Positions 6,409 through 63,250 of a DNA stretch of 64,000 bases are shown here, one piece after another. The stretch comes from Octopus vulgaris (lineage: Eukaryota). The stretch's first letter is position 1. Each line of letters starts with the position of its first letter. A model generated the notes under the pieces. That model was not told the origin of the DNA. It made no database searches and saw only the letters and a program-made list of their open reading frames with translations. The DNA lies in the NCBI GenBank assembly GCA_951406725.2, contig OX597830.1, positions 26,164,001-26,228,000 on the forward strand. Direction: 5' to 3'. A program made the position numbers and the translations under genes.

Positions 6409-6859
6409 CTTTGAAGAAAAAAAAATCGTACATGTATATGCAGGTCTGACTATGCGGTAAGAAGCTTACTTCCCAACCACTTGTTTCAGGGTTTAGTCTC
6501 ATGGCGTGATAACCTGGGCAAGTGTCGGACTGACCAAATCTTTGTGAGTGGATTTGGCAGAGGGAAACTGAAAGAAGCCCCTCGTATATGTGTATATGTA
6601 TATACCTATGTGTGTGCGTCTTTATGTCTGTATTTGACCCCAACACAACTTGACAACCCCAACACAATTTGACCTCAGAATGTAAAGCACCAGAAGAAAT
6701 TCCGCAAAGCATTTTGTCCGACGTGCAAACGATCCTTCCCATTCAAGGGATTATGTGAGATGCACTATTTTGTGTTCTCTTATAGTTTATTGTGATTTAA
6801 TGGAAACGGATTAATGCCCGCGCAGTATTTACAATCTTTCAAATTTTGGTAAAAGGTCA

Positions 6860-7490
6860 ACGGTTTTAGGGGCGTAATAAGGCGATTACATTGAGCCCAG
6901 TATTTAACTGGTACTTATTTTGTCGATTCTGAAAGGATGATAGGTAAAGTCGACCTCGGCAGGATTTGAACTTTGAATGTAAAAGAGTCGGAAGAAATAC
7001 CGCTAACCGTATCGTCAAACACGTTAACGATTCTGCCAGCTTGCCGCCTTTATCCTGGAAATAATATAGTTTGTATATTGAGCGGGGAGCTGGCAGAATC
7101 GTTAGCACGTCGGAAAAAATGCTTAGCGGCATTTCGTCCGTCCTTGAGTTCTGATTTAAAATTTCTCCGAGGTCAACTTTGCCTTTTATCTTTTCGTTTC
7201 GGGGTCGATTAAATAAGTACTAGGTACGCACTGGGATGGATGAAATCGACTAGTCCCCTCCCCACAAATTTCAGGCCGTGTGTCTTTAATAGAAAAGATT
7301 ATTAAGGTGGCAATCTGGCAGACTTGTTAGCACGCCGGGCAAAATGTTTAGTGACATTTCGTCCATCTTTACGCTTTAAATTCAAGTTCCGCCGAGATCG
7401 ACTTAACCTTTCGTCCTTTCGGGATTGGCTCGATGTAATCGACTACCCACTCATCAGAGGTTTCTGGCCTTCTGCCGAAATTTGAAACCA
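6860..7490. mobile_element. Three SINE copies (one -, two +) of the same family
   Basis: Same core in opposite orientations. Confidence 0.8.
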
Positions 7491-20323: not shown

Positions 20324-20643
20324 TTGTATATATCGTTCATACACAAGTACGTACACGCACACCCACACACTTGCACAAGCACAAATAAATGGCACTTTTA
20401 CATATACATACACGTCGGTATTTCCCTCTGTAACAACAAATTTATCCAAAACTTATCTTTTCTTGCACCATAGAAATATAACTATAGGTTAGATAAAATA
20501 ACTAAATATTATATAACATAGTGCTATATAGATTTGGGGAAAAACTCATGGACCTGCTGAAGCAGAACCAACACGGGTATTAGAAAGAATAACACCATAC
20601 ATACATTCACACACACAGAAGTGCACATCCACATGTGTGTCAG

Positions 20644-20686
<43 letters not shown>

Positions 20687-20740
20687 CTCACCCCTTCTCT
20701 CTCCCTCTCTCTCTCCCTCCCTCTCTGTCTGTCTGTCCGC

Positions 20741-20769
<29 letters not shown>

Positions 20770-20773
<4 letters not shown>

Positions 20774-21815
20774 ATCTCGGCCACACTGACATCATCATAA
20801 AACCGGCCGACCAGGGTGGAGCCTTGGTGGTTTGGCGCGCAGACCTCTACAAATCCGAAGCTCTCCGACAACTTCAAGACACTTCCTTCTACTGCCCTCT
20901 GTCCTCTGACCCCGCGCCCAGCTACCAACAGACTGTGTCCTCCACTATCCATGACCTCGTCTACTCCTCCCGTCTCCCTCCACCGCCTTCAGCTTCATTG
21001 TACACACCACGCACACCCACCATTTACTTCATCCCCCAAATCTGTAAACCTAACAACCCTGACTGCCCCATCGTTTCCGCCTTCAACCGCCCCACCGAAC
21101 TCACCTCCAGATATCTTGACCGTGTCCTTGCCCCCATAGTGGCTTCCCTCCTCTCTTACACCCACACTCATTCGTCTGGCCGAACTTGTCGTCTCACTCA
21201 ATTATACTTCTCGTTCGTGGGTGATTTCTACCAGCTGACTCAGGAGTGTCCATGGGAACGAGAATAACCGCCCCCCCCCCCAACTATGCGAACCTATTCG
21301 TTGGCTACGTTGAGGCCCAAATATTCTCAGGTTTTACTGGTCCCACTCCCGAACTATACGGCCGTTATATTGACGACTGTATCGATGCGACCTCACTCTC
21401 CCGCGAACGTCTAGACTCCTTCCTCTCTTTTGTCAAATCTTTCCATCCTGTCCTCCACCTCTCCTGCACTATCTCAGATACTTCTGTCCCCTTTCTTGAC
21501 ATTTCGGTCTGCATCATTACTCCACTCTCACCGCCATCCACTACAAACACACAGACTCACACTCATACCTCAACTAATTTCCCTCCCACCCTAAACACAC
21601 CAAGCTTTCCACCCCCAATTCCCAATTCCTCCGTCTACGCAGGCTCTGTAGTGACGACCATGACTTTGAGGCTCAGTCTCAACTCATGGCTCGCCACTAC
21701 ATCCTACGTGGATATCCCCTCACTGCCCTTGCCGGAGCAAGTTCCGTGGCCATCCGGACACCCGTTTGCGCCGCCGTGAACAGGGATTAATCTTCTCTCT
21801 TCGCCCCTTTGCGCT
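20770..21815 (+). mobile_element. Penelope-like element reverse transcriptase, degenerate
   Basis: IIIKPADQGGALVVW, IYFIPQICKP..PIVS, SMGT..PNYANLF, RYIDD, PFLDI, SQFLRLRRLCS, RGYP. Confidence 0.9.
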
Positions 21816-40224: not shown

Positions 40225-40278
40225 GATGGGTGCTGATGAAGGAGAAAAAGCTCCCGAAAAGTGGCATATACCTACATC
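40225..40278 (+). ncRNA. Minimal type I hammerhead motif
   Basis: GGGUG-CUGAUGA-AGGAG AAAAAG CUCCC-GAAA-AGUGGCA-UA|UACCU; core intact, one stem III mismatch. Confidence 0.65.
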
Positions 40279-40762: not shown

Positions 40763-43700
40763 TCTCTTATGATAAAAGGCAGATTTTCTCTGCCTGTTCC
40801 CATGTTTCTTTTTAATACAATTCTACAATATAGAATTTCTTCAATTGGAATTTACCTATGATTTTTCCAAGTAGATTCGATTGGGTCACGGCATGTAAAG
40901 TTTTTTCAATTTGACCCCCAATTAAGCAAAAATTCGAGAAAACTCAATATTTTACGATTTGCCTCTCATTTCAAGTGGTTTACTCCTGCTATTACCACCA
41001 CACTTTCTCCTACTTTCTCTTTGCAAGGGTGAAACTATTAAAGTGAAAGTATTATATAACAGGGATGAGCCATTAAAACTGGTCATCCTTTTTGCTAGAG
41101 GAAGATCCGCTATGGTCTTATATGCTACACCACTGGTTTTCAATTCATATTAATCAAATTAATATTCAATTTTTCACCCTTATTATGTGTGTGTGTGTGT
41201 GTATTAGCAATTCGTATAAAATTGCATCAATGACTTGAACTTGAATAAGTGGTTTCACATAAATGGGGATAAATTAAAAAGGTTTGTTGTTATTATTATT
41301 ACTGTTTGACTATTGTAATCACGTTTGTTTGTTCCCCGTCAGGGAAACGTTGTTGTGTTGCATTTGTTAAATAATTGTAAACCGTAACCCTCCCCCTTTC
41401 GGAGAAGGGGCTTTGGTTATTGTTTAAAAATTGAATTGTGTCCCTGTTTGGGGAAATTGACAATATTTTCACCGTCTTTACGGAAGCATTTTTGTTAAAA
41501 TGCCTTCGATAGAAGAAAGTCCAAAAATGAATTTCGCTGCAGCCGTACACTTCTATACAAGAGGGAGGACAAGATCCACTTGATCGAAATTGCCAGAGAC
41601 GGGCCTACAATTCCATTCTGTTATATATTTTGAGTATTGTTATTACTAGCGATATCAAGATATAACTTTGTATTTTGTATTTTATGTGTAGATGTATATA
41701 TATATAGATGTACATGTAATATGTACACATATATATATACACATATATACATGCATAATATATCTACCCATACACACATACGCACACACACATACACAAA
41801 CACACACACATACATAGGAGAAGGTGTGGCTGTGTGGTAACAAACTACGTTCGAAGATACTGTACTTGATATGGGCGGTAGTGCCTTGCCGGTCTATGGC
41901 CTACCTTCAACAAACCGGGAAGGCACAAACACTCTGTCTTCACATTTGCTGCGTGAGACATGTTTTAATGTTGACGAGCTTGCCGAGTATATAGCCGACA
42001 ATGAGCCAAAGCTCCTTCTAGAACAGAAGTTCGCTTACAACTCCGTTGTTAATTCAGTCCGGGCCCAAGCTGGGGGGATTTTTTCCCTGCACGCTCCTGG
42101 GGGCACTGGGAAAACTTTTGTCAACAAATTAATATTGGCTGAGATTAGGCGAACACAAGGCATTGCCCTATCTGTGGCATCATCTGGAATTGTGGCTACT
42201 TTGTTGCCAGGCGGCAGGACAGCTCACTCCACTTTCAAGCTCCCGCTTGACTTAGCGAAAACTGAGACACCAACTTGCAACATCAGTAACAGCTCCGATC
42301 AGGCAGAAGTCTTCAGACGATGCAAGCTTATCGTTTGGGATGAATGCACGGTGGCCCACAGAGGTGCTCTTGAGGCACTAGATAGATCTCTCAGAGACAT
42401 CAAACACTCTTCAGCTCCCATGGGAGGCATAACACTTCTTCTTTCAGGGGACTTCCGACAAACACTTCCCGTTATTCCCAAAGGGACGAGAGCTGATGCA
42501 GTAAGTGCGTGTCTTAAGTCATCTACATTGTGGCCACTGGTGAAGACTCTCAAACTTCACACCAATATGCGTGATATGCGACTTGATATCACATCAGCAG
42601 CATTTTCTCACACCCTCCTTGCACTTGGCGAAGGCAAAATACCAGGGGATGAAAATGGTAATATTGCCATCGATTCCATTTGTACCATTGTTAAAACGCC
42701 TTCTGATCTCAGAGATGCAGTGTTCCCAGATCTACAAGCTAATTATCAGAATATGGATTGGATTGGCCAAAGGGCTATTCTGGCACCGAGGAATAAAACT
42801 GTTCACCATATTAATGATGAAATGCTAAAACTCATTCCTGGGGATGTCTATGTATATAAGTCTATCGGTACAACTCCTGACCCAGAGGACGTCATCAACT
42901 ATCCAATAGAGGTACTCAATTCCTTTGAGCCCACCGGACTACCACCACGCATTCTCAGACTTAAAGTTGGTGCCCCTATAATGCTCATTAGAAATTTGTT
43001 TCCCCCAAAACAATGTAATGGCATACGTTTGATCGTTAGGTCCTTATCTCCCAATCTGATTGAGGCCACCATTATCACAGGGTGCGGTCGAGGCAACGTT
43101 GTGCTCATACCTAGGATGCATCTTTTCCCATCAGGAGCAGACCTATCTTTCATATTTCGGAGGTCCCAGTTCCCAGTAAGGCCATGTTTCACAATGTCAA
43201 TTAACAAAGCGCAGGGTCAAACACAGTCTGTGGCGGGAATACATTTTGGAGAGCCATGTTTCTCTCATGGTCAGCTTTATGTTGCCTGCTCGCGCGTCGG
43301 CAGCAACAGTGATGCTTTCGCATTCGTTCCACAACGAAAAACAACAAACATTGTGTACAAGGAGGTTTTATAGGATTACTACGTTTCATCATTTTCGAAC
43401 ACGTTAGTATTTCACTTACATACGACTCTCTTTTATGATGGCATTTACATTTCTAGGCGTTTCATGACATTAATTCACACTTAACCAACACCTGTCCTTC
43501 GCTCACCTCTATTTCTATCCATTCATCATCAAACCACCAGCCTCATCTTCTATATCCAACGTACATGACACATCTACCCCCTACATTTACACTCTCACTG
43601 TTAAAGTTTACATAAGCAACACGATCGCAACATACACTTTGGAAACTAAGCAACAGATCATTTTATACAACAACAAATTTAATCATAACGCCCATCAATG

Positions 43701-45708: not shown

Positions 45709-45863
45709 ATCTTATAACTGGGAGGCAACAGCAGAGTAGATAAATAAAATTTCTGTAAAAACAACAAAAAAATGTGAGTGAGAATCGAAATCACGCTAAA
45801 CCGATGTGGAAAGCAATACCCTAACCGCTGGGTCAAAAGTCTTCACTATTATTCTATACTTAC

Positions 45864-46297
45864 AGGATAAAAGGTATTCGGGAAAAAACGGAATGGAAGT
45901 TTCTTTTCATCAATTTCTTCGTAATGATCGAAGTAGGATTCGTGTAGCTCGATAATATTCTCAAGAACATTTCGAACAGTCGTCTCTACTTGGTCTATCT
46001 CTTTAGTGTACACTATGTTCATTTTTTTATATTGGCATACAGACTGCTCTATATCAACGGAGCAATGAAGTAAGACATATAAGCTTAAAGTGTCATTTTT
46101 CAGAGTGGCACTAACTTTGTCCTCCTCTTCCATTAATGGCGTGAAAATGAGTACTTTGATTAAATAATTGTTGAAATGAGTATCGCAAATGTCTTTATAC
46201 TGAGTGTTGTCAGATGAAATTCTATACTCCGTAAGTAACATTTCTTGCAAATACTTGCTCCAATCTTCGCCATCAGCAGAGTGAATAAATAAAATTT
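45864..46297 (-). CDS. Gene A exon 2, TIR-like domain: (K)ILFIHSADGEDWSKYLQEML...FRFFPNTFYP
   Basis: Poly-T tract plus ACAG acceptor, GTAAGT donor, 434 nt open. N-terminus resembles the BCAP TIR start (ILIVYSxDAEEWxQYL, recalled). Paralogous to 9679-10136. Confidence 0.88.
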
Positions 46298-46402
46298 CTG
46301 TAAAAAAAAAAAAAAAAACTTAAATAGTGAACGATAACAAAAAAAAAGCAAAAATTAATAGAACATAATGTTGAAAAATGTAAAACGCCAAACAATGAAA
46401 AT

Positions 46403-49809: not shown

Positions 49810-49834
49810 TTTCGTAGTTTCCACTGTCAGCCAT
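49810..49834 (-). CDS. Gene A (BCAP/PIK3AP1-BANK1-Dof-like TIR-DBB adaptor), coding exon 1: MADSGNYE
   Basis: gaggcgATGG start context; 25 nt then a GTAAGT donor; phase 1 matches the acceptor at 46297 (junction codon AAA). Confidence 0.75.
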
Positions 49835-51753
49835 CGCCTCTGTTTAGTAGTACTCGAGTAGTTTCACTGATTTCTTCTCTCTTCTCTTGTTCTCGTTTTC
49901 TCTGTCTGTATGAATGTGTGTTTGTCTAAATCTACGAGACGCTTGTATTTTATGCTATTTGAAATTTCTGTTCGTCACTTTTATATGACACCATTATATC
50001 TCCGCTGTTAGTGGTTTAAGTTACAGATTATATTTACTGAATGATTCACAATGGAAATGAACAACAGGAAACAAAATTAGCCAATTGAAATGCTCGTCTT
50101 CCACCCAGGGTGGCGACGGAGGGCAGGCTCTGATATTATGTTTCGTTTCACCCTACCGATTTCGCTAAGGAAGGTGGTGATAAGATTGGGACGGTGGGGA
50201 AGAAAAAACCGTGTCAACATTAGTAGACACTCCTTTCTACGTATGTCTACTACATGAAAATGGCCGAGTCCAGAAGTTAAATGAAAGATTGCCACTACTT
50301 GGGTGGTATTATGTTTACCAACCTCGAAGTTACGAAGAAAAAAAAAAGTCGACCGCAGAAAGATTCGAACTCAGGGCTAGAGACATATTACCAAACAGGC
50401 TAACAAACTCCCACCTACTGTTCTAACTCGCTACCTGTCAATAAAATCTGATAAATTTATAGTTTACTTCAATTCACACCGTAATAGTTTATTACTCAAA
50501 ACATGACCGTATGATTACGAAGCTGCTTTGCAACCATGAAGTCCACTGCAGGGCACCTTGCCCCAGTGTATTCTACTATAACCCCGAGACGACCAAATAT
50601 CTTATTAGGAAATCTGGTAGACAGAAACTACGTGGAAGCCCGTCTCATATTATATTATATTATGTTATATTGTATATTATATTATATTATATTATATTAT
50701 ATTATATTATATTATATTATATACATGCGAGTGTTTGTGTTTGTCTCCCCTACACCAATTAATAACACAAACACACGCATATATATAATATAATATAATA
50801 TAGTTTAAGATAATATGATATAATACAATCACAGCGAGGTGGCAGAATTGTTAGCACGCTGGGCGAAATGCTTAACTCTATTTCTCCTTCCGTTACGATC
50901 TGAGTTCAAATTCCACCGACGTCGACTTTTTCTTTCATCCTTTCGGAGCCAGTTAAATGAATATAAGTTACGCGCTGTTGTCGATGTAATCGACTTAATT
51001 TCTTTGTCTGTCCTTGTTTGCCCCCTGTGGGCAATAAAGAAAAAAAAATATAATTGTTTATATAATCGCCGTAACTTTGTTTTTTAAAGATTAAGCAACC
51101 CTTAAAGGCGGTAGCCCCTTGGTGGCAGCACTCCAGTGACACAAATAAGTATGCTGGGTGTGTATATATATATATTCTTTTATTCTTTTACTTGTTTCAG
51201 TCATATGGCAGCGGCCATGCTGGAGCACCACTCTGAACGGTTATAATCGAATAAATCGACCCCAGGAGTTTTTTTACGCCTAGTACTTATTGTATCGGTC
51301 TCTTGTACCGAACCGCTATGTTACGGGGACATAAAGACACCAGTACTAGTTGTCAAGCGGTGATGGTAGGGGTGAACAAATATATATACAAAGACACACA
51401 GACACACACACAGATATATATACATGTATGTATAAATTTCACACATGTTATAATTGTGTGTGTGTGTGTGTGTATGTGTGTGTGTGTATGTGTGTGTGTG
51501 TGTGAATGCGCGCGTGTCCGTGAAGGTGCGTGGCTTAGTGGTTAGAGCATTCGGCTCATGATCGTAAGGTCGTGAGTTCAATTCCCAGCGGCACGTTGCG
51601 CCAGTCCACTCAGCTGGCAAAAATGAGTAGTACCTGTATTTCAAAGGGCCAGCCTTGTCACACACTATCAAGCTGTTCCGTTGATCGTATCAGCTGGGAC
51701 CCTCGTCGTCGTAACCGACAGAGCGCTCCTCGTTATATATATATATATGTGTA

Positions 51754-51811
<58 letters not shown>

Positions 51812-51819
51812 CACACACA

Positions 51820-51871
<52 letters not shown>

Positions 51872-52051
51872 ATAAAAATATGGTAAAGTAAAAAAATTAA
51901 CTCTACCACACACCGAACTTTTCAGAAATAGCAGCCAAAAATTTGGCTATTTCTTCAACTGCAAATAAAAGTCTCCAGACAATGCATACTCAGAAAATAA
52001 CTCACATAGGTATAAGGGAAAAACAATGAAAGATCACATCCATATACGATA

Positions 52052-52114
52052 CCCGAGGACAGTCTGTTTCTGGATTTGTGGGTAAAACGCCACTTTTCCT
52101 TCATCAGCTCAGAG
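52052..52114 (-). ncRNA. Hammerhead ribozyme, identical copy
   Basis: Reverse complement of 52903-52965. Confidence 0.8.
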
Positions 52115-52611
52115 ATTTCTTCTGATTTAGATTTGAAAATACTAAGAATCAAACATACCCGTCCGATATCTGTAACATCGGACAAACCATGCCAGACACC
52201 CAGTACTAGCGAATCCAAAAATACGAATGAGATCTATTATTCTCCCTGTCCACCCACGTGAGTCATAGAGCATTACATTTCTACAGAGGTAAAAACTGCA
52301 GTTCAAATTCTTGGAGATAAAGCATTATATTGTCATCAAAAAAGGGTTAGAATTAATTAATTGTTAATAAATTCGACCAAGCAGTATTCGGTATGTAAAG
52401 ACCATTTACGGTATATTTGAAGTATTAATTTATAAAAATATGGTAAAGTAAAAGAATTCCCTCTACCACACACCGAACTTTTCAGAAATAGCAGCCAAAA
52501 ATTTGGCTATTTCTTCAACTGCAAATAAAAGTCTCCAGACAATGCATACTCAGAAAATAACTCACATAGGTATAAGGGAAAAACAATGAAAGATCACATC
52601 CATATACGATA

Positions 52612-52674
52612 CCCGAGGACAGTCTGTTTCTGGATTTGTGGGTAAAACGCCACTTTTCCTTCATCAGCTCAGAG
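52612..52674 (-). ncRNA. Hammerhead ribozyme, identical copy
   Basis: Reverse complement of 52903-52965. Confidence 0.8.
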
Positions 52675-52902
52675 ATTTCTTCTGATTTAGATTTGAAAAT
52701 ACTAAGAATCAAACATACCCGTCCGATATCTATAACATCGGACAAACCATGCCAGACACCCAGTACTAGCGAATCCAAAAATACGAATGAGATCTATTTT
52801 TGGATTCGCTAGTACTGGGTGTCTCTATGGTTTGTCCGATGTTACAGATATCGGACGGGTATGTTTGATTCTTAGTATTTTCAAATCTAAATCAGAAGAA
52901 AT

Positions 52903-52965
52903 CTCTGAGCTGATGAAGGAAAAGTGGCGTTTTACCCACAAATCCAGAAACAGACTGTCCTCGGG
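52903..52965 (+). ncRNA. Minimal type I hammerhead ribozyme (intact core)
   Basis: CUCUGAG-CUGAUGA-AGGA...UCCA-GAAA-CAGACUG-UC|CUCGGG; predicted cleavage after 52959. Confidence 0.8.
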
Positions 52966-53495
52966 TATCGTATATGGATGTGATCTTTCATTGTTTTTTC
53001 CCTTATACCTATGTGAGTTATTTTCTGAGTATGCATTGTCTGGAGACTTTTATTTGCAGTTGAAGAAATAGCCAAATTTTTGGCTGCTATTTCTGAAAAG
53101 TTCGGTGTGTGGTAAAGTGAATTTTTATATATATATATATATATATACATATATATACACATATATATATATATATATATACATACATATATATATATAT
53201 ATTATCCATAATAATAAAGGGTAAAATTAATTAATTAATTAATAATTAATAATTTTACCAAGTCGTTCGGTATGTTAAAAGAACCATTATCCGTAAACTT
53301 ATACATAAAATTTTATAATCATGAGTATAATTATAATTAGGGTTCAGCAAAAATTTGCTTCAACACATACTGAAATTTAGAAATAGCAGTTAAAACTAAC
53401 TATTTCACTACTATAAGAAAATTCCCCAAATAGCAATACTCAACAACCCACACAGGTAAAGAGAAAAAAATAACGAATCCACCTGGCTTTGATTA

Positions 53496-53578
53496 ACTGT
53501 GCACGCGTTTTGGAGGTTTGAGAGATGTGAAAAATGTAAAATCATATTTCACTCTATCATTCTCCTCTTCAGCACAGT
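53496..53578 (-). ncRNA. Degenerate hammerhead motif
   Basis: ACUGUG-CUGAAGA-GGAG...CUCC-AAAA-CGCG-UG|CACAGU; G12 and the cleavage triplet are mutated. Confidence 0.6.
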
Positions 53579-53829
53579 AATTCAAGATTTTAAATTTGAG
53601 AGTACAGCAAAAATTAAACACTTTTTTGCTGAACCCTAATTATAATTATACTCATGATTATAAAATTTTATGTATATATATAGGAAAATCATTGTCGTCA
53701 AATGAACTTTATGAAGGATATGAATAACACCTACATAGCTAGAAATAGGGGCCAAAATGTTCCAATGTTGTTACAAAGCACATAGCATATATTCTGATAG
53801 GGGCTGCAATCACCCCGAATCAAGAATTC

Positions 53830-53879
53830 CTTAGACTGACCGGCCAGTATCGTCTATTTCCCAAGCCATCTTCAGTAAG
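53830..53879 (-). ncRNA. Degenerate hammerhead motif
   Basis: CUUA-CUGAAGA-UGGCU...AGAC-GAUA-CUGGCCGGUCAG-UC|UAAG. Confidence 0.55.
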
Positions 53880-53971
53880 ACCAGTTCGTTCGGTTGATTC
53901 CGGGCTAGCAGATCGCTAATGTTTATACAACAAATGAATAAAAACTACTGTTTGCAATATTATACCGTAAA

Positions 53972-54358: not shown

Positions 54359-54410
54359 TATTATACGGTAAAGGAAAACTATAGTCGCCAACTAAACTTG
54401 ATTATGGGCG

Positions 54411-55115
54411 AGCTAGCCCGGAATCAACCGAACGAGCTGGCTTTACTAAAGATGGCTACGGAAATGGCCGGTTGGTCTAAGAAATTCCCGGTTCGGTGTT
54501 CGGGGCGATTACAGCCCCTATCAGAGTATATGCTATGTGATTTGTAACAGCTTTGGAGCACTTTAGCTCCTATTTCTTGCAATGTAGGTGTTTTCACACC
54601 ATTAGTCAAGTTTAGTCAAGAGGTTATTTTCATTACGTAGGAAAATAACCAGAGATGATGATAGAAAGAGAATCCAACAGGATCTAGAAAAGACGTACAT
54701 GAAAGACTTTGAAATGGTGAAGACACGCCAGATTAAGAGGTTTATGAAACTCAAATCTCAGAGAATGAAGACTGAAGTCCGTCGCCCACCTTTGAAAGCA
54801 GTAATTAATGTAAGTAGCCGACATCTAGAAAGCTCTGAAGAAGCAGTACTAAACAAAGGTCTCAACTTTGCGACAACCATTAAGCGTATTCCATACTTGG
54901 ACATAATAGCCCCTATTAAAGTGATAGCTATAAAGATACCAAAAGCTCAGGGAGATGAACTAAGGTGGAAAGTGAGACAGGTACAAGAAAAAGCAAAACT
55001 TCCCAAACTAAACATCACTAAGGAAGAAATGATCGCTATCAAAAGACTACAGAGTGACAATTCCATCATAATACTTCCAGTAGACAAGGGGAATGCTACA
55101 GTGGTGATGAAAAAA
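54411..55115 (+). mobile_element. Penelope-like element 5' part (repeat copy plus ORF N-terminus 54699-55142)
   Basis: VINVSS..L...EEAVLNKGLNF and NITKEE..AIKRL..IIILPVDKGNATVVM; preceded by a repeat whose inverted copy lies at 53720-53910. Confidence 0.85.
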
Positions 55116-55221
55116 GGTTACCTTCATTACTTAGAAAAATAACCAGAGAAGTTTAGTCGACGACTATAATTTTCCTTTACGGTATAATATAGCAAACAAC
55201 TGCTTATATGCATGTGTATAT

Positions 55222-56690: not shown

Positions 56691-57584
56691 TCGAAGACAA
56701 CTGGAAAGGCAAACACCTGCATGGAAAATATCCTAACAACCTATTCAAGCCAGATATTGATAAAAAATCTAACACACCAATGGCTAGAAGAGAGAAGTCT
56801 GAAAGAGGAAGCAGAAGGTTTTGTTATTGCAGCGCAAGATCAGAGCTTACCTACCAGAAACTACCATGCAAACGTTCTTTAAAATGGATGTGACCCCTCA
56901 AGCAGAATTTTCGGGATATTCACAAAGACAATTGATCATGTTTCTGGTTGCCTAGCCTTCGCTGAAAAGGAGTACTTCATAAGACATGAAAGACTAGGGT
57001 AGTACATCCACTGGAATGCTTGTATATATTACAATATTAAATCCCATATTAAGTGGTACAGGCACCATCCAGAGGATGTGGTAAGTGGCGAGGGTGTCAC
57101 CATACTTTGGAACTTCCCAATACAAATAGACAGAAAAATTGACTCCAATCGACCAGGCATTGTCATCAAGGACTACAACAGAGGAAGTTGTCTGTTAATA
57201 GCTATGTCCGTTCCACAAAATCAAAATGTTTCAAGAAAAGAATACGAAAACCTTTCTCACTATAAATATCTGCAAATTGAAATCGCAAAAATGTGGAAGC
57301 TTAGTACAACAATAATAACAGTAATAATTGGTGCATTAGGAATAATAAATGGAGCAAAACGTATATTAAACAACTCGCTGTTAACTCCAGTCTCCGTGAA
57401 CTGCAAAAGATAACCTTGATAGGTACATCCTATATACTGCGGAAAGCACTCTCCATCTAATATAAAATAAATGTAGTGAAAATTTTAACATGCATAGCAA
57501 ATCAAAAGTGCCCTCGATACTCTTGGCCTCCAGAAGATGCCCAGTACTGAGGCAGCTGAAATAAAGTTATAATGGAAAAAAACT

Positions 57585-57585
<1 letters not shown>
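56690..57585 (+). mobile_element. R4/Dong-like RLE non-LTR retrotransposon, degenerate 3' fragment
   Basis: Translates to GKYP, EGFVIAAQDQSLPTRNY and LWNFPIQIDRKIDSNRPGIV with frameshifts; (TAA)n on both sides. Confidence 0.85.
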
Positions 57586-57614
<29 letters not shown>

Positions 57615-57615
<1 letters not shown>

Positions 57616-59273
57616 CCTCTCTCAAAGCTGCTCAATGACGCGCAGTACGGGTATAAAATGTTTGATAAAAATATAAATCATCTCGTTTACATGGATGATT
57701 TAAAGCTTTTTGCAAAAAATGACGAACAACTCAAGGGCTTACTAGCGATAGTCAAACAATTCAGTGACGACATCAGAATGCAATTCGGCCTCGATAAATG
57801 TGCAAAGGCTACCTTTATCAAAGGAAAAATGACAGAAACATCTAACGTTAACCTTGACCAACAGAATGTCATAAAAGAACTAGATCCAGCGGAGAGCTAC
57901 AAGTACCTAGGGGTAATTGAAGGGAACGGAATAAGGCATTCAGAGATGAAGGAAAGGATCAGGAGAGAATGCTATCGAAGAGTGAGAGCAATACTCAAGA
58001 CAGAGCTGAATGCAAGAAACAAGATCGAAGCGATCAATGCATTAGCCATACCAGTCGTGACTTACAGTTTCAATATTGTTAACTGGTCAATTACTGAAAT
58101 ATGTCAGCACGACAGAAAAATAAGGAAACTGTTGACAATGCATAGAATGCACCACCCTAAGGCAGATACAGAACGACTCTATCTGCCAAGAAAAGAGGAG
58201 GCCGTGGTCTTTTGCAACTGGCAATAACAATGAAGATTGCTACAATTGGCCTAGACACCTACCTGAAAAACTCTGAGGACTGGATGTTAAAACTTGTCTC
58301 AAAACATGAAAACAAGAAAGCATCATACTCAGTAACAAAACAGGCAAAGGAATATCTAAGTGAATTCCGAATACAACCAATTTCGGAATTAGAGATAGAT
58401 ATACGAGAAACAAGCACAGAAAAAGCTAGGCGCATGAAAACCCGTGCCAAAACTGCGGCCTTAGATATTCTGAATAATAAATGGCAAGAAAAACCTCTCT
58501 ATGGCAAATACCCAAAGAGAGCGAATAATGCAGATATCGACAAAGCCCTGACCCATCAATGGCTGATGGCCTCTGGCTTAAAATCTGAAACAGAGGGGTT
58601 TATCATAGCAGCTCAAGATCAATGCCTACCAACAAGAAACTATCAGGCCAACATATTAAAGAACTGCAGTAGCACAACATGTCGTGTATGCCGACAACAA
58701 AATGAAACCATTGACCATGTTGTCTCCAAATGCAGTCTTCTAGCGCCTACAGAGTACCTCAGTAGGCATGATATAGCTGCACAATATATTCTCTGGGTAA
58801 TTTGCAAAAACCTGGATTTACCCCATGTAAACAACTGGTGGGAACACAATCCATCTCCTGTGCTTGAAAATGACCACATCTCACTCCTCTGGAACTTCAC
58901 CATTCAAACTGACAGGAAGATAGATGCAAATAGGCCAGACATTATATTGAAAGACTTCAGACAAAGAACATGCCTCCTCATTGATATGACTGTCCCAATC
59001 GATATAAACGTATCTGTCAAGACCTACCAAAAACTGAGCAAATATAAAGATCTTGAAATAGAAATCAGCAAAATGTGGAAGCTAAAGACTAAAACAATAC
59101 CTGTTGTCATAAGTGCCCTGGGAATGATAGCGAAAGGGAATGATTGCTACCTAACTCAGATACCAGGAAACCCCAAAATGGCAGAAATTCAAAAGATAGT
59201 GCTCATGGGAGCTGCTCATATCCTACGCAAAATACTCTCTATGTAATCCCAAGGTTTAAAACAAACTTTTTTT

Positions 59274-59304
<31 letters not shown>

Positions 59305-59450
59305 TGTATTAGACATTCACTTGTACAACACAAAAAAAAAATAATAACCCCAAATATATGGCACAGAACATCCAACCTGTTGTCTCTTGAGGTCTCTGGG
59401 TGAGACTTGGAGCCAACTTGTACAGACATAAAGCAAAAGTGAAACATAGA
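57615..59450 (+). mobile_element. R4/Dong-like retrotransposon, 5'-truncated (RT C-terminus, CCHC knuckle, RLE endonuclease; one frameshift near 58200)
   Basis: ORFs 57658-58227 (HLVYMDDLKLF, YKYLG) and 58212-59246 (CRVC..ETIDHVVSKC, RHD, NRPDI..D, KLSKY); (TAA)n on both sides. Confidence 0.93.
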
Positions 59451-59472
59451 ATAATAATAATAATAATAATAA

Positions 59473-59503
<31 letters not shown>

Positions 59504-59574
59504 AAGAAGAAAAAGAAGAAGAAGAAGAAGATGAAGAAGGAGAAGAAGAAGAACAACAATAATAATAATAATTT

Positions 59575-59726
59575 TTTTTTTTAGACATTCATTAGTACAA
59601 CACCCCCCCCCCCAAATATATGGCACACTAGGCATAACAACAACATGAACTTCCAACCTGTTGTCTCTTGAGTTCTCTGGGTGAGACTTGGAGCCAACTT
59701 GTACAAATATAAAGCAAAAGTCAAAC

Positions 59727-59799
<73 letters not shown>

Positions 59800-60001
59800 A
59801 AGAAGAACAACAACAACAACAACAACAACAATAATAATAATAATTTTTTTTTAGACATTCATTAGTACAACACCAACCGCCCCCCCCCAAATATATGGCA
59901 CACTAGGCATAACAACAACATGAACTTCCAACCTGTTGTCTCTTGAGTTCTCTGGGTGAGACTTGGAGCCAACTTGTACAAATATAAAGCAAAAGTCAAA
60001 C

Positions 60002-60005
<4 letters not shown>
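59575..60005 (+). repeat. Two extra tandem copies of the Dong-like 3' UTR with compound (TAA)(GAA)(CAA) spacers
   Basis: ttagacattc...aaagcaaaagtcaaacat recurs at about 59310, 59581 and 59851. Confidence 0.85.
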
Positions 60006-60070
<65 letters not shown>

Positions 60071-60094
60071 GAAGAAGAAGAAGAAGAAGAAGAA

Positions 60095-60196
<102 letters not shown>

Positions 60197-61090
60197 GAAC
60201 AGCAACGAACCATGATAAAACGATGGCAAGAAAAGCCCCTTCATGGTAAATATTGCACTAAACTAAACGCAAAAGAAATAGACAAAGAAAAATCCTAGCA
60301 ATGGTTGAGAAGCTCAGGACTCAAAGCAGAAACAGAGGGATTTTTAATTGCAGCACAAGACCAAAGCCTCCCCACCAGAAATTACCAAAAACATGTAATG
60401 AAAAGAAATATTACAAGTAACTGCAGAATATGTGGAAATGGACAAGAAACAATAAATCATATTATCTCTAGCCGCCCAGTCCTGGCTAAGAAGGAATATA
60501 TTCACAGACATGACAGAGTTGGAACCTACATACATTGGAAGCTATACCAACATTATGGAATAACAACAGAAAAAAGATGGTATAGGCACACACCAGAAAA
60601 GGTCACAGAAAACGAGAAAGCAACCATACTCTGGGATATGCCGATACACACAGATAGAGAAATTAAGGCCAACAGACCAGATATAGTTGTCAGAGATCAA
60701 GAAGAAAAAAAATGCTTTCTAATTGATGTATCAATACCGGCAGATGACAACGTGTCTCTAAAAGAAATGGAGAAACTCTCAAAATACAACGACCTGGAAA
60801 TAGAGGTAACTAGAATGTGGAATCTGAAAACAGAAACAATTCCTATCATAGTAGGTGCATTAGGCATGATAAAAATATATTCAGACAAATACATAACAAA
60901 AACACCAGGACTTACAAACACATATAACATACAGAAAATTGCACTACTAGGCACTGCACACATCCTACGCAGAACACTTTCCATACAATAACCATCAGAG
61001 CATCACAACAAATCACAGCACATACCCAAGACACACAGAGCTGCGCTCGGTAGTGAAGTGAAAGCACGCTATAAAAATAAAACTACTGAA
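60197..61090 (+). mobile_element. R4/Dong-like retrotransposon, second subfamily, 3' fragment
   Basis: ORF 60305-60991 (CRIC..ETINHI, RHD, NRPDIVV, KLSKY); upstream in-frame stop; (TAA)n flanks. Confidence 0.92.
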
Positions 61091-61113
61091 TAATAATAAT
61101 AATAATAATAATG

Positions 61114-61652
<539 letters not shown>

Positions 61653-61691
61653 ATGATTATAATAATAATAATAATAATAATAATACTGGGT

Positions 61692-63250
61692 CTAACTCAT
61701 GTCATAAAAGAGTTAGACCCAGTGGAGAGCTACAAGTACCTAGGGGTAATTGAAGGGGATGGAATAAGGCATTCAATGATGAAGGAAAGGATCAGGAGAG
61801 AATGTTATCGCAGAGTAAGTGCAATACTCAAGACAGAGCTGAATGCGAGAAACAGGATCGAAGCGATCAATGCTTTAGCCAGTCGTGACTTACAGTTTCA
61901 ATATCGTAAACTGGTCAATTACTGAAATATGTAATCTTGACAGAAAAATACGAAACCTGTTGACAATGCATAGAATGCACCACCCTAAGGCAGATATAGA
62001 TCGACTTTATCTACCAAGTAAAGAGGGAGGCCGTGGTCTTTTACAACTAGCAATGACAATGAAGGTTGCTACAATTGGCCTAGACACCTACCTGAAAAAC
62101 TCTGGATGTTAAAGTACTGGATGTTAAAACTTGTCTCAAAACATGAAAACAAGAAAGCATCATACTCACTAACAAAACAGGCAAAGGAATACCTAAGTGA
62201 ATTCCAAGTGCAACAAATTCCGGAATTAGACACACAAGAAACAAGCACAGAAAAAGCTAAGCGCATGAAAACCCGTGCTAAAACAGCTGCCTTAGATATT
62301 CTGAATGATAAATGGCAAGAAAAAACTCTCAATGGCAAATATCCAAAGAGAATGAATAATACAGATGTTGACAAAGCCCTGACCCATCAATGGCTAATGG
62401 TTTATGGCTTAAAATCTGAAACAGAAGGATTTATTATAGCAGCTCAAGATCAATGCCTACCTACAAGGAACTACCAGGCCAACATTTTAAAGAACTGCAG
62501 TAGCCCAACATGTCGTGTATGCCAGCAACAAAATGAAACCACAGATCAAGTTGTCTCCAAGTGCAGTCTTCTTTCGCCTACAGATTATCTCAACAGGCAT
62601 GATATAGCTGCACAATATATTCACTGGGTAATTTGCAAAAGCCTGGACATGCCCCATGAAAAAAACTGGTGGGAACACAAACCACCGCCAGTGCTTGAAA
62701 ATGACCACATCTCACTCCTCTGGAACTTCACCATTCAAACTGACAGAAAGATAGACGCGAATAGGCCAGACATAATAGTAAAAGACTTCAGACAAAAAAC
62801 ATGCATCTTCATTGATATGACTGTCCCAATCGATATAAACGTATCTGTCAAGACCTACCAGAAACTGAGCAAATATAAAGATCTTGAAATAGAAATCAGC
62901 AAAATGTGGAACCTGAAGACTAAAACAATACCTGTTGTCATAGGCGCCCTGGGAATGATAGCAAAAGGGGCTGATTGCTACCTAACTCAGATACCAGGAA
63001 ACCCCAGAATGGCAGAAATTCAAAAGATAGTGCTCATGGGAACTGCTCATAGCCTAGGCAAAATACTTTCTTTGTAATGTCAATTTTAAAAAAAACACAT
63101 AATTTTCGTATGGTTTTTTAGGCATTCACTAGTACAACACTAGTACAAAATCCAAATATATGGCATCCTAGGCATAACACCAACATGAACTTCCAACTTG
63201 TTGTCTCTTGAGGTCTTGTGCAAATGTAAAGCAAAATTCAAACATAGAAT
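61692..63250 (+). mobile_element. R4/Dong-like retrotransposon, first subfamily, 5'-truncated and frameshifted
   Basis: ORF 62106-63077 closely similar to 58212-59246; same 3' UTR; short TAA tail. Confidence 0.92.

Follow-up and report, generated by a model that had tools for sequence, protein, structure and literature searches.

A probable non-autonomous Penelope-like insertion bearing three hammerhead motifs in Octopus vulgaris

A typical Penelope insertion consists of two direct pseudo-LTRs (pLTRs) and an adjacent inverted pLTR joined head-to-head, with an optional tail; the inverted pLTR overlaps by 15 bp and is 37 bp shorter, unrelated sequence can be carried in trans between the pLTRs, and self-priming on the antisense template has been proposed (PMC3846280). 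Penelope-like elements (PLEs) more broadly form a partial tandem with an inverted 5′-truncated copy, carry a tail, show a bias toward microsatellites, bear hammerheads in their pLTRs, and have non-autonomous derivatives (PMC8557442). The PLE hammerheads are minimal (min-HHR), with an extra base after A9, a G10.1-C11.1 pair, a palindromic helix III, and weak, dimer-dependent cleavage, and two of them can lie on opposite strands at a spacing of 100-700 bp (PMC4209133). A PLE protein assayed in vitro cleaves AT-rich DNA and extends both strands, with internal initiation; the hammerhead is protein-assisted, and dispensable for insertion in vitro, as PAc ribozyme mutants still insert (PMC11167929). 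Among retrozymes, whose units are related to pLTRs, eight of nine dimers gave no cleavage and one was cleaved (bioRxiv 10.64898/2026.07.22.740005). Penelope expansions have been described in octopus, and the available portion of that account makes no mention of ribozymes (PMC8967140). A literature search returned no octopus report of a hammerhead-bearing non-autonomous Penelope family, and the supplements of the retrozyme papers may list cephalopod cases.

The locus described here lies in a 64-kb stretch of Octopus vulgaris DNA (the window) and is, in our judgment, quite probably one insertion of a non-autonomous PLE of the non-LTR retrozyme type, mobilized in trans. The PLE hallmarks found at the locus are partially tandem direct pLTRs, an inverted 5′-truncated head-to-head copy, (TA)n on both flanks, and, in each pLTR-like repeat, a type I hammerhead that was recognized by descriptor and follows the consensus apart from one extra A. 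The link to PLEs is thus likely, drawn by analogy from layout, motif type, and target, not from homology to a coding PLE.

Layout of the array and its copies

Self-BLAST reveals a minus-strand direct repeat of 376 nt with 6 substitutions and a period of 560, comprising a downstream pLTR-like copy 1 (51866-52241) and an upstream, 5′-truncated copy 2 (52426-52801), together with an inverted, 5′-truncated plus-strand copy 3 of 335 nt (52795-53129). A sequence-only reading of this DNA had described just such a minus-strand pair 560 nt apart with an inverted plus-strand copy, and that description holds; the direct-plus-inverted arrangement itself is not special and proves to be the standard footprint of a PLE insertion as set out in PMC3846280 and PMC8557442. 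The array extends over 1.67 units on the minus strand (936 nt) plus the inverted arm, which is 41 nt shorter than the direct repeats. Copies 2 and 3 meet in a head-to-head inversion junction (52788-52801), where they overlap by exactly 4 nt (52795-52798), or by 6 of 7 nt if the overlap is carried as far as 52801. Both outward-facing ends of the array are 3′ ends and lie on (TA)n, and the two inner ends are 5′ ends.

The 3′ end of copy 1 adjoins the left (TA)n-rich microsatellite at 51734-51867, which is pure TA at 51734-51747, 51757-51810, 51820-51837, and 51840-51867, and the 3′ end of copy 3 adjoins the right one at 53126-53201. The left microsatellite was likely the insertion target, an observation on microsatellite targets that covers this locus and a neighboring relative only; no target-site duplication is readable within the (TA)n. 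Copy 1 runs about 23-26 nt past the end of copy 3, compared with 30-40 nt for a PLE tail, and a further family 3′ end lies near 52330-52339. Between the direct repeats is a body of only 184 nt (52242-52425, minus strand) without an ORF, which belongs to the repeat family and of which 52338-52425 is homologous to the 3′ end of the neighboring older element; no ORF for RT plus GIY-YIG lies between the direct repeats, and the array is therefore not an autonomous PLE.

The three copies are 97-98% alike overall. The inverted arm differs from copy 2 (52449-52788) at 9 of 337 columns, indels included, and from copy 1 at 7 of 337, and all differences fall outside a 153-nt stretch around the hammerhead motif that is identical in the three. 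The identity noted earlier for the three hammerheads therefore holds for the motif and does not extend to the repeats as wholes.

The 560-nt unit has a GC content of 35%. Read as a circle, its longest ATG ORF encodes 49 amino acids in the sense direction and 19 in the antisense direction; a stop-to-stop frame of 111 amino acids at 52736-53071 has no Pfam match, and inspection of the unit's frames showed nothing like RT or GIY-YIG. No ATG ORF thus exceeds 49 codons, in agreement with the initial view of an element without a meaningful ORF.

The hammerhead motif and its predicted folds

Each copy contains a 62-nt type I hammerhead motif, letter-for-letter the same in all three: motif 1 at 52052-52113 on the minus strand (CUGAUGA core from 52107, predicted cut after the C at 52058), motif 2 at 52612-52673 on the minus strand (core from 52667, predicted cut after the C at 52618), and motif 3 at 52904-52965 on the plus strand (core from 52910, predicted cut after the C at 52959). 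The features first picked out by eye, a CUGAUGA/GAAA/GUC core, a stem III with a 1-nt loop, and an A-A at the base of stem II, are all present. Helix I has 6 bp, 3 of them G.U, and the cleavage triplet is GUC; helix II has an internal loop and an A on either side of its base; and helix III is the palindromic ACAG-A-CUGU. The motif fits the PLE min-HHR consensus in its extra base after A9, its G10.1-C11.1 pair, and its palindromic helix III, and departs from it by one additional A before GAAA, at the base of helix II. AGAAA is read in 1 of 56 core cells in Fig. S3 of PMC4209133, where the extracted text does not allow the row to be assigned, and a mismatch at the base of helix II occurs in active axolotl ribozymes (PMC7229834).

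A structure-aware hammerhead descriptor, composed post hoc after the motif had been seen, matches the 64-kb window at the three copies and nowhere else; in block-wise dinucleotide shuffles it matched once in 5 of 200 and never more often (mean 0.025), and as the three matches are one motif copied, this amounts to a chance of about p = 0.025 for the motif alone. Rfam models do not recognize it: no hammerhead appears among the best 150 of the 257 matches listed for the whole window, nor among the 4 matches to 52000-52200 at E ≤ 10, so that the covariance-model check proposed at the outset came back negative. Rfam matches to MIR6440 and mir-974 at 52693-52884 are a mere reflection of the hairpin, and a CTGATGA...GAAA at 7457 (-), which fails the descriptor, sits in an abundant SINE-like family and was discarded as a hammerhead. 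At 40233 (+) there is a further CTGATGA...GAAA with a plausible helix II and, under the descriptor, without helix III or helix I, possibly another decayed PLE hammerhead.

Folding predictions suggest that the ribozyme would be weak as a monomer and would act as a dimer through its palindromic helix III. This helix is computed at +2.1 kcal/mol as a lone hairpin and at -6.9 kcal/mol as an intermolecular duplex, in line with the expectation of dimer dependence, which we regard as probable. The active hammerhead fold is predicted at -9.6 kcal/mol against a minimum of -13.2, and in context the pairing probability is about 0.01 for helix I and 0.008 for helix III between copies. A local hairpin that pairs 52125-52121 with 52109-52113 (p 0.82) is predicted to tie up helix I.

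Cuts at 52618 and 52058 would free a 560-nt RNA, for which the predicted circle has an energy of -164.6 kcal/mol (z -6.1 over 60 shuffles; for the antisense strand, z -2.5 over 20) and combines a rod of ~70 bp with a 39-bp hairpin and a further, small one that holds the 5′ strand of helix I. Such a fold would fit a retrozyme-like RNA and is not decisive, its stability not being unique to the unit: of 32 control tiles free of microsatellites, 3 have z ≤ -5 (8 shuffles each) and 1 has a larger energy gap. Three of the tiles (6721-7280, 41441-42000, and 50401-50960), for which folding predicts exceptional stability (z -5 to -9, 8 shuffles), are probably inverted repeat remnants.

Several possible signs of selection or editing on the rod were considered and set aside. 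Blind alignments of the predicted rod gave raw G.U:A.C ratios of 13:1 and 12:1, an apparent trace of RNA-level selection that is largely compositional, since shuffles already yield 70% and 82% G.U (p = 0.048 and 0.29); the long-range complementarity itself is modestly significant (3/500 and 0/500 shuffles), with split points picked after folding. An ADAR footprint was sought in the neighbors of the G.U Gs, where a 5′ G occurs at 4/29 against 28/97 for the A-U As (p = 0.14, uncorrected) and a 3′ G at 11/29 against 19/97 (p = 0.05, uncorrected), a hint at most. Eight family variant places fall at paired positions, where 5 keep the pair and 3 break it, which is uninformative. A structure common to the unit and its older relative is unsupported: the fold returned by RNAalifold for the pair is weak and different, and the junction stem does not form in the older relative alone.

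The sequence-only reading had the locus release a 560-nt unit. In a transcript of the whole locus, on either strand, copies 2 and 3 are predicted to pair with each other, leaving 99-100% of ribozyme bases paired at long range; two of the three ribozymes would thereby be buried, which makes the locus a poor source of a 560-nt circle. Release is thus predicted to be blocked unless transcription begins inside the truncated copy 2, and the read-through product here would likely be a hairpin of ~330 bp, or long dsRNA, not a circle.

Family members, neighboring elements, and gene A

The unit belongs to an abundant repeat family, as the search for genomic relatives in public sequencing runs makes clear. 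At least half of its words are present in 20 of the 24 runs listed (10 studies, four organisms), none of which is on record as RNA; that X7 is an RNA run is a guess. Contigs matching the unit number 646 in X1, 513 in X2, 473 in X13, and 36 in X7, and in each of these 4 runs they cover 30 of 30 bins. X13 record 11 covers the hammerhead (52032-52108) with 0 differences at a depth of 13,542, and the shallowest variant contigs listed for X13 have depths of 36-58; contig depth, summed or not, is not copy number, and contigs show presence only, so that the figure of hundreds of near-identical family copies, which we infer from the depth ratio of one record, is a rough estimate. As the motif is unchanged in this deep contig, having an A on either side of helix II is characteristic of the family and does not reflect damage to this particular locus.

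In X1 and X2 the head-to-tail junction is represented by several variants of low depth, the older relative extends through it as well, and 52293-52391 is bridged, with 4 differences, by X2 record 24; the 560-nt continuity is therefore common to other copies. Two hammerheads lie 560 nt apart here, in only 1.67 units, and longer tandem arrays were not seen. As for the inversion junction, no strand-changing joint is listed in any of the 4 runs, whose contigs show presence only. At 51903 the letter of the window is kept by at most 0.2% of summed depth in each of the 4 runs; copies 1 and 2 share this rare letter (51903/52463), and copy 3 has the common family letter. X7 also contains a 327-nt contig across the hammerhead, its RNA origin guessed and its locus of origin not assignable. 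Exact-pattern scans gave 0 matches in metagenome contigs and 0 in viral contigs, and within the window all 3 nhmmer matches to the unit are the copies themselves. Abundant relatives and the lack of any ORF over 49 codons together agree with the original picture of a young, non-coding, hammerhead-bearing element of the Penelope or retrozyme kind.

Immediately beyond the right microsatellite is an older relative (53200-53676, minus strand; 66% identity over 272 columns), whose hammerhead (core from 53572) has decayed, with GAAA reading AAAA and the triplet lost; the relative has a perfect 54-bp inverted arm of its own (53300-53353/53623-53676) and represents an independent insertion, of like geometry, into the same TA run. 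Farther on, hammerhead-like repeats form another inverted head-to-head pair (about 53700-53910 on the minus strand and 54410-54620 on the plus strand, cores at 53875 (-) and 54448 (+)), 77% alike over 212 columns, with one core mutated and SINE-like copies between the arms. This pair precedes a PLE ORF fragment (54606-55139, plus strand), an N-terminal part that is 46-57% identical over most of its length to the unnamed RT proteins P0003-P0008; the full-length homologs carry RT and, by eye, a GIY-YIG-like C-terminus. Two older PLE insertions of the same geometry thus lie within 1.5 kb of the element.

The window as a whole is microsatellite-rich animal DNA and holds other mobile remnants: a frameshifted PLE-like RT remnant at 20593-21779 (+), 25-31% identical to P0003-P0011; an open frame of 510 codons containing a PIF1 helicase (E 8e-63) at 41841-43373 (+), within an intron of gene A, which we take to be probably a Helitron fragment; and, at 56700-63100 (+), several apparently repeated fragments of ORFs from non-LTR retrotransposons (RVT_1 at 57565-58224, zf-RVT at 58161-59243), presumably R4/Dong-like. 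A tRNA-like Rfam match at 51526-51595 (+), scoring 31.9 against a gathering threshold of 29, is likely the head of a tRNA-derived SINE.

Gene A, which we assume to be BANK1/BCAP-like, lies on the minus strand, with a first-exon ATG at 49834 that agrees with the N-terminus of Octopus proteins P0001 and P0002 and with exons down to 28606; the exon at 45852-46319 shares 97-98% identity with two Octopus proteins (2 matches among 187 candidates), which identifies the host as an Octopus, and the N-terminal domain of gene A has a weak TIR_3 match under the Pfam cut-off. A diverged tandem paralog with 27-32% identity is found at 10131-6277 (-). A bacterial promoter scan at gene A was disregarded as not applicable to the octopus host. 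The ATG is 2.03 kb from the edge of the element and 2.2 kb from the first hammerhead, and SINE-like repeats with many copies in the window, microsatellites, and a tRNA-like remnant lie between, the whole stretch being dense with retroelements. The distance of 2.2 kb and the shared strand noted at the start are thus correct, but the connection implied between element and gene does not follow from them: co-orientation is a coin toss, repeats intervene, and, given the two older insertions of the same geometry next to the element, proximity to gene A carries little weight. The gene is likely a bystander, and we see no ground to suspect regulation of this neighboring gene with its TIR-like domain.

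Alternative readings, mechanism, and known systems

The same array could be made of 5′-truncated 3′ ends (pLTR plus tail) of an autonomous PLE, the 560-nt period being a product of partial tandem formation without any family unit. Most PLE copies are indeed 5′-truncated and arranged in partial tandems (PMC8557442), the array can be read as truncated pieces of 462 nt and 474 nt, and loose ends at 52319-52339 (X1 and X2), with the end of the older relative nearby, would mark the 3′ terminus; we nevertheless hold this to be unlikely, since X2 record 24 and X7 record 30 both read through 52328-52338, differing from the window at 4-5 places, the loose ends listed have no common alternative upstream sequence (share running on unlike 0, 0, 0, and 0.02), and the unit frames, on inspection, are unlike RT and GIY-YIG. 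That the inverted arm or the whole array arose as an artefact of assembly or amplification, a palindrome error being a concern raised at the start, is hardly credible: assemblies have trouble with such structures (PMC8557442) and the inversion junction was not seen in the contigs of the 4 runs, but the arms differ at the 9 of 337 columns given above and end at different points, the letter common in the family stands in copy 3 against a rare one in copy 2, and the same geometry recurs in the two older neighbors.

A separate matter is whether the hammerhead works. It could be a dead relic or a chance match within a genuine PLE-type insertion, a reading that overlaps with ours as to origin; catalytic death, to which alone our estimate refers, strikes us as possible if somewhat doubtful. 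The silence of Rfam, the post hoc descriptor with its p of about 0.025, the A on both sides of helix II, the predicted disfavor of the active fold, and the in vitro insertion of PAc ribozyme mutants (PMC11167929) speak for it, and they must be set against core letters that are all intact and unchanged in the deepest contig listed, the fit to the min-HHR consensus with its AGAAA precedent (PMC4209133), the mismatched helix II bases of active axolotl ribozymes (PMC7229834), and the homologous decayed motif at the same place in the older relative. At the other extreme, the locus itself might be an active source of 560-nt circular RNA that may even act on gene A in cis, as two intact motifs on one strand 560 nt apart, the strong predicted circle fold (-164.6 kcal/mol, z -6.1), and the 327-nt X7 contig across the hammerhead (RNA by guess, locus not assignable) would have it. 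This seems to us very improbable: hammerhead 2 is predicted to be buried in the 330-bp hairpin of a read-through RNA and helix I to be sequestered (p 0.82), copy 2 is 5′-truncated about 125 nt upstream of its hammerhead so that a promoter may be missing, and SINE-like repeats and microsatellites separate the element from gene A.

If the locus is a non-autonomous PLE insertion, as we prefer, a Penelope RT/GIY-YIG endonuclease acting in trans would have cut the AT-rich (TA)n target, and one DNA end would have primed a 936-nt cDNA of 1.67 units; such a cDNA is longer than one unit, which implies that the template was a multimer or a circle, and family multimers would be processed into 560-nt monomers by the dimeric hammerhead. 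The other DNA end would have received a 335-nt cDNA, with the truncated 5′ ends joined via microhomology, and the three hammerheads would simply be a consequence of three copies. As copies 1 and 2 share a rare letter that copy 3 lacks, copy 3 likely derives from another template molecule or unit and not from a fold-back of copy 2, although gene conversion between the direct copies could also account for the letter they have in common. Compared with the self-priming proposed in PMC3846280, the letter pattern favors a second template without settling the matter.

A bolder version, which we put forward as a conjecture with rather little probability, is that the 560-nt unit would be a viroid-like, rod-shaped circular RNA serving directly as template for the Penelope RT, with the 1.67-unit copy, in which one rare letter occurs twice, arising when a single circle was reverse-transcribed by the rolling-circle route, the inverted arm arising from a second molecule primed at the other DNA end, and the A.A-closed hammerhead kept off by the local hairpin. 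Were this true, a young, high-copy family would make the long-proposed circle-templated transposition of PLEs testable, and the heavy A-to-I editing of octopus may have marked the rod.

Among described systems, the closest in layout are the EN+ PLE insertions (Penelope/Poseidon, Neptune; Pen2a_Av of Adineta vaga, PMC3846280), which share with the octopus array direct pLTRs, a shorter, overlapping head-to-head inverted copy, an apparent 3′ extension at one end only, an AT-rich or microsatellite target, and a type I hammerhead in each repeat; unlike them, the octopus array has only 184 nt, without an ORF, between its direct repeats, an extension of 23-26 nt, an overlap of 4-7 bp, and no readable target-site duplication. 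The hammerhead resembles the min-HHR (PMC4209133) in its CUGANGA-H-G...C-GAAA core, extra base after A9, long helix II, palindromic helix III, and predicted dimer dependence, and differs in the additional A between C11.1 and G12, in a helix III that is a 9-nt palindrome with a central A.A, and in a 6-bp helix I. Likewise non-coding PLE derivatives, with pLTRs and head-to-tail insertions in microsatellites, are the non-autonomous Chlamys elements, MRC1 among them (PMC8557442); in contrast to the octopus element, Chlamys and Naiad are mostly without hammerheads, and since cephalopod Naiads are reported as old remnants (PMC8557442), a Naiad partner is unlikely.

As a family, the octopus unit comes closest to the metazoan non-LTR retrozymes (PMC7229834; bioRxiv 10.64898/2026.07.22.740005), with which it shares a non-coding unit with one type I hammerhead each, apparently in head-to-tail order, a low GC content (35%, against a criterion of <45%), a strongly structured predicted circle, and a proposed mobilization by PLEs. 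Its 560 nt fall within the retrozyme range of 51-972 nt (bioRxiv 10.64898/2026.07.22.740005) and exceed the 220-390 nt typical of invertebrate monomers; unlike retrozymes, the locus has only 1.67 units and an inverted arm, its hammerhead is of the PLE type and not canonical, and helix I is blocked in the fold predicted for its circle, whereas in the majority of metazoan retrozyme circles the ribozyme is predicted to remain free (PMC7229834). The locus would add a cephalopod family to the hammerhead-bearing non-autonomous derivatives of Penelope and provides a compact example of a complete PLE insertion footprint without coding sequence, and its copy-specific letters bear slightly on how inverted arms form, pointing to a second template rather than to fold-back; greater weight would come only with a demonstrated circle and cleavage. 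By analogy with these systems, the octopus element likely behaves like a PLE insertion at this locus and, as a family, like a non-LTR retrozyme.
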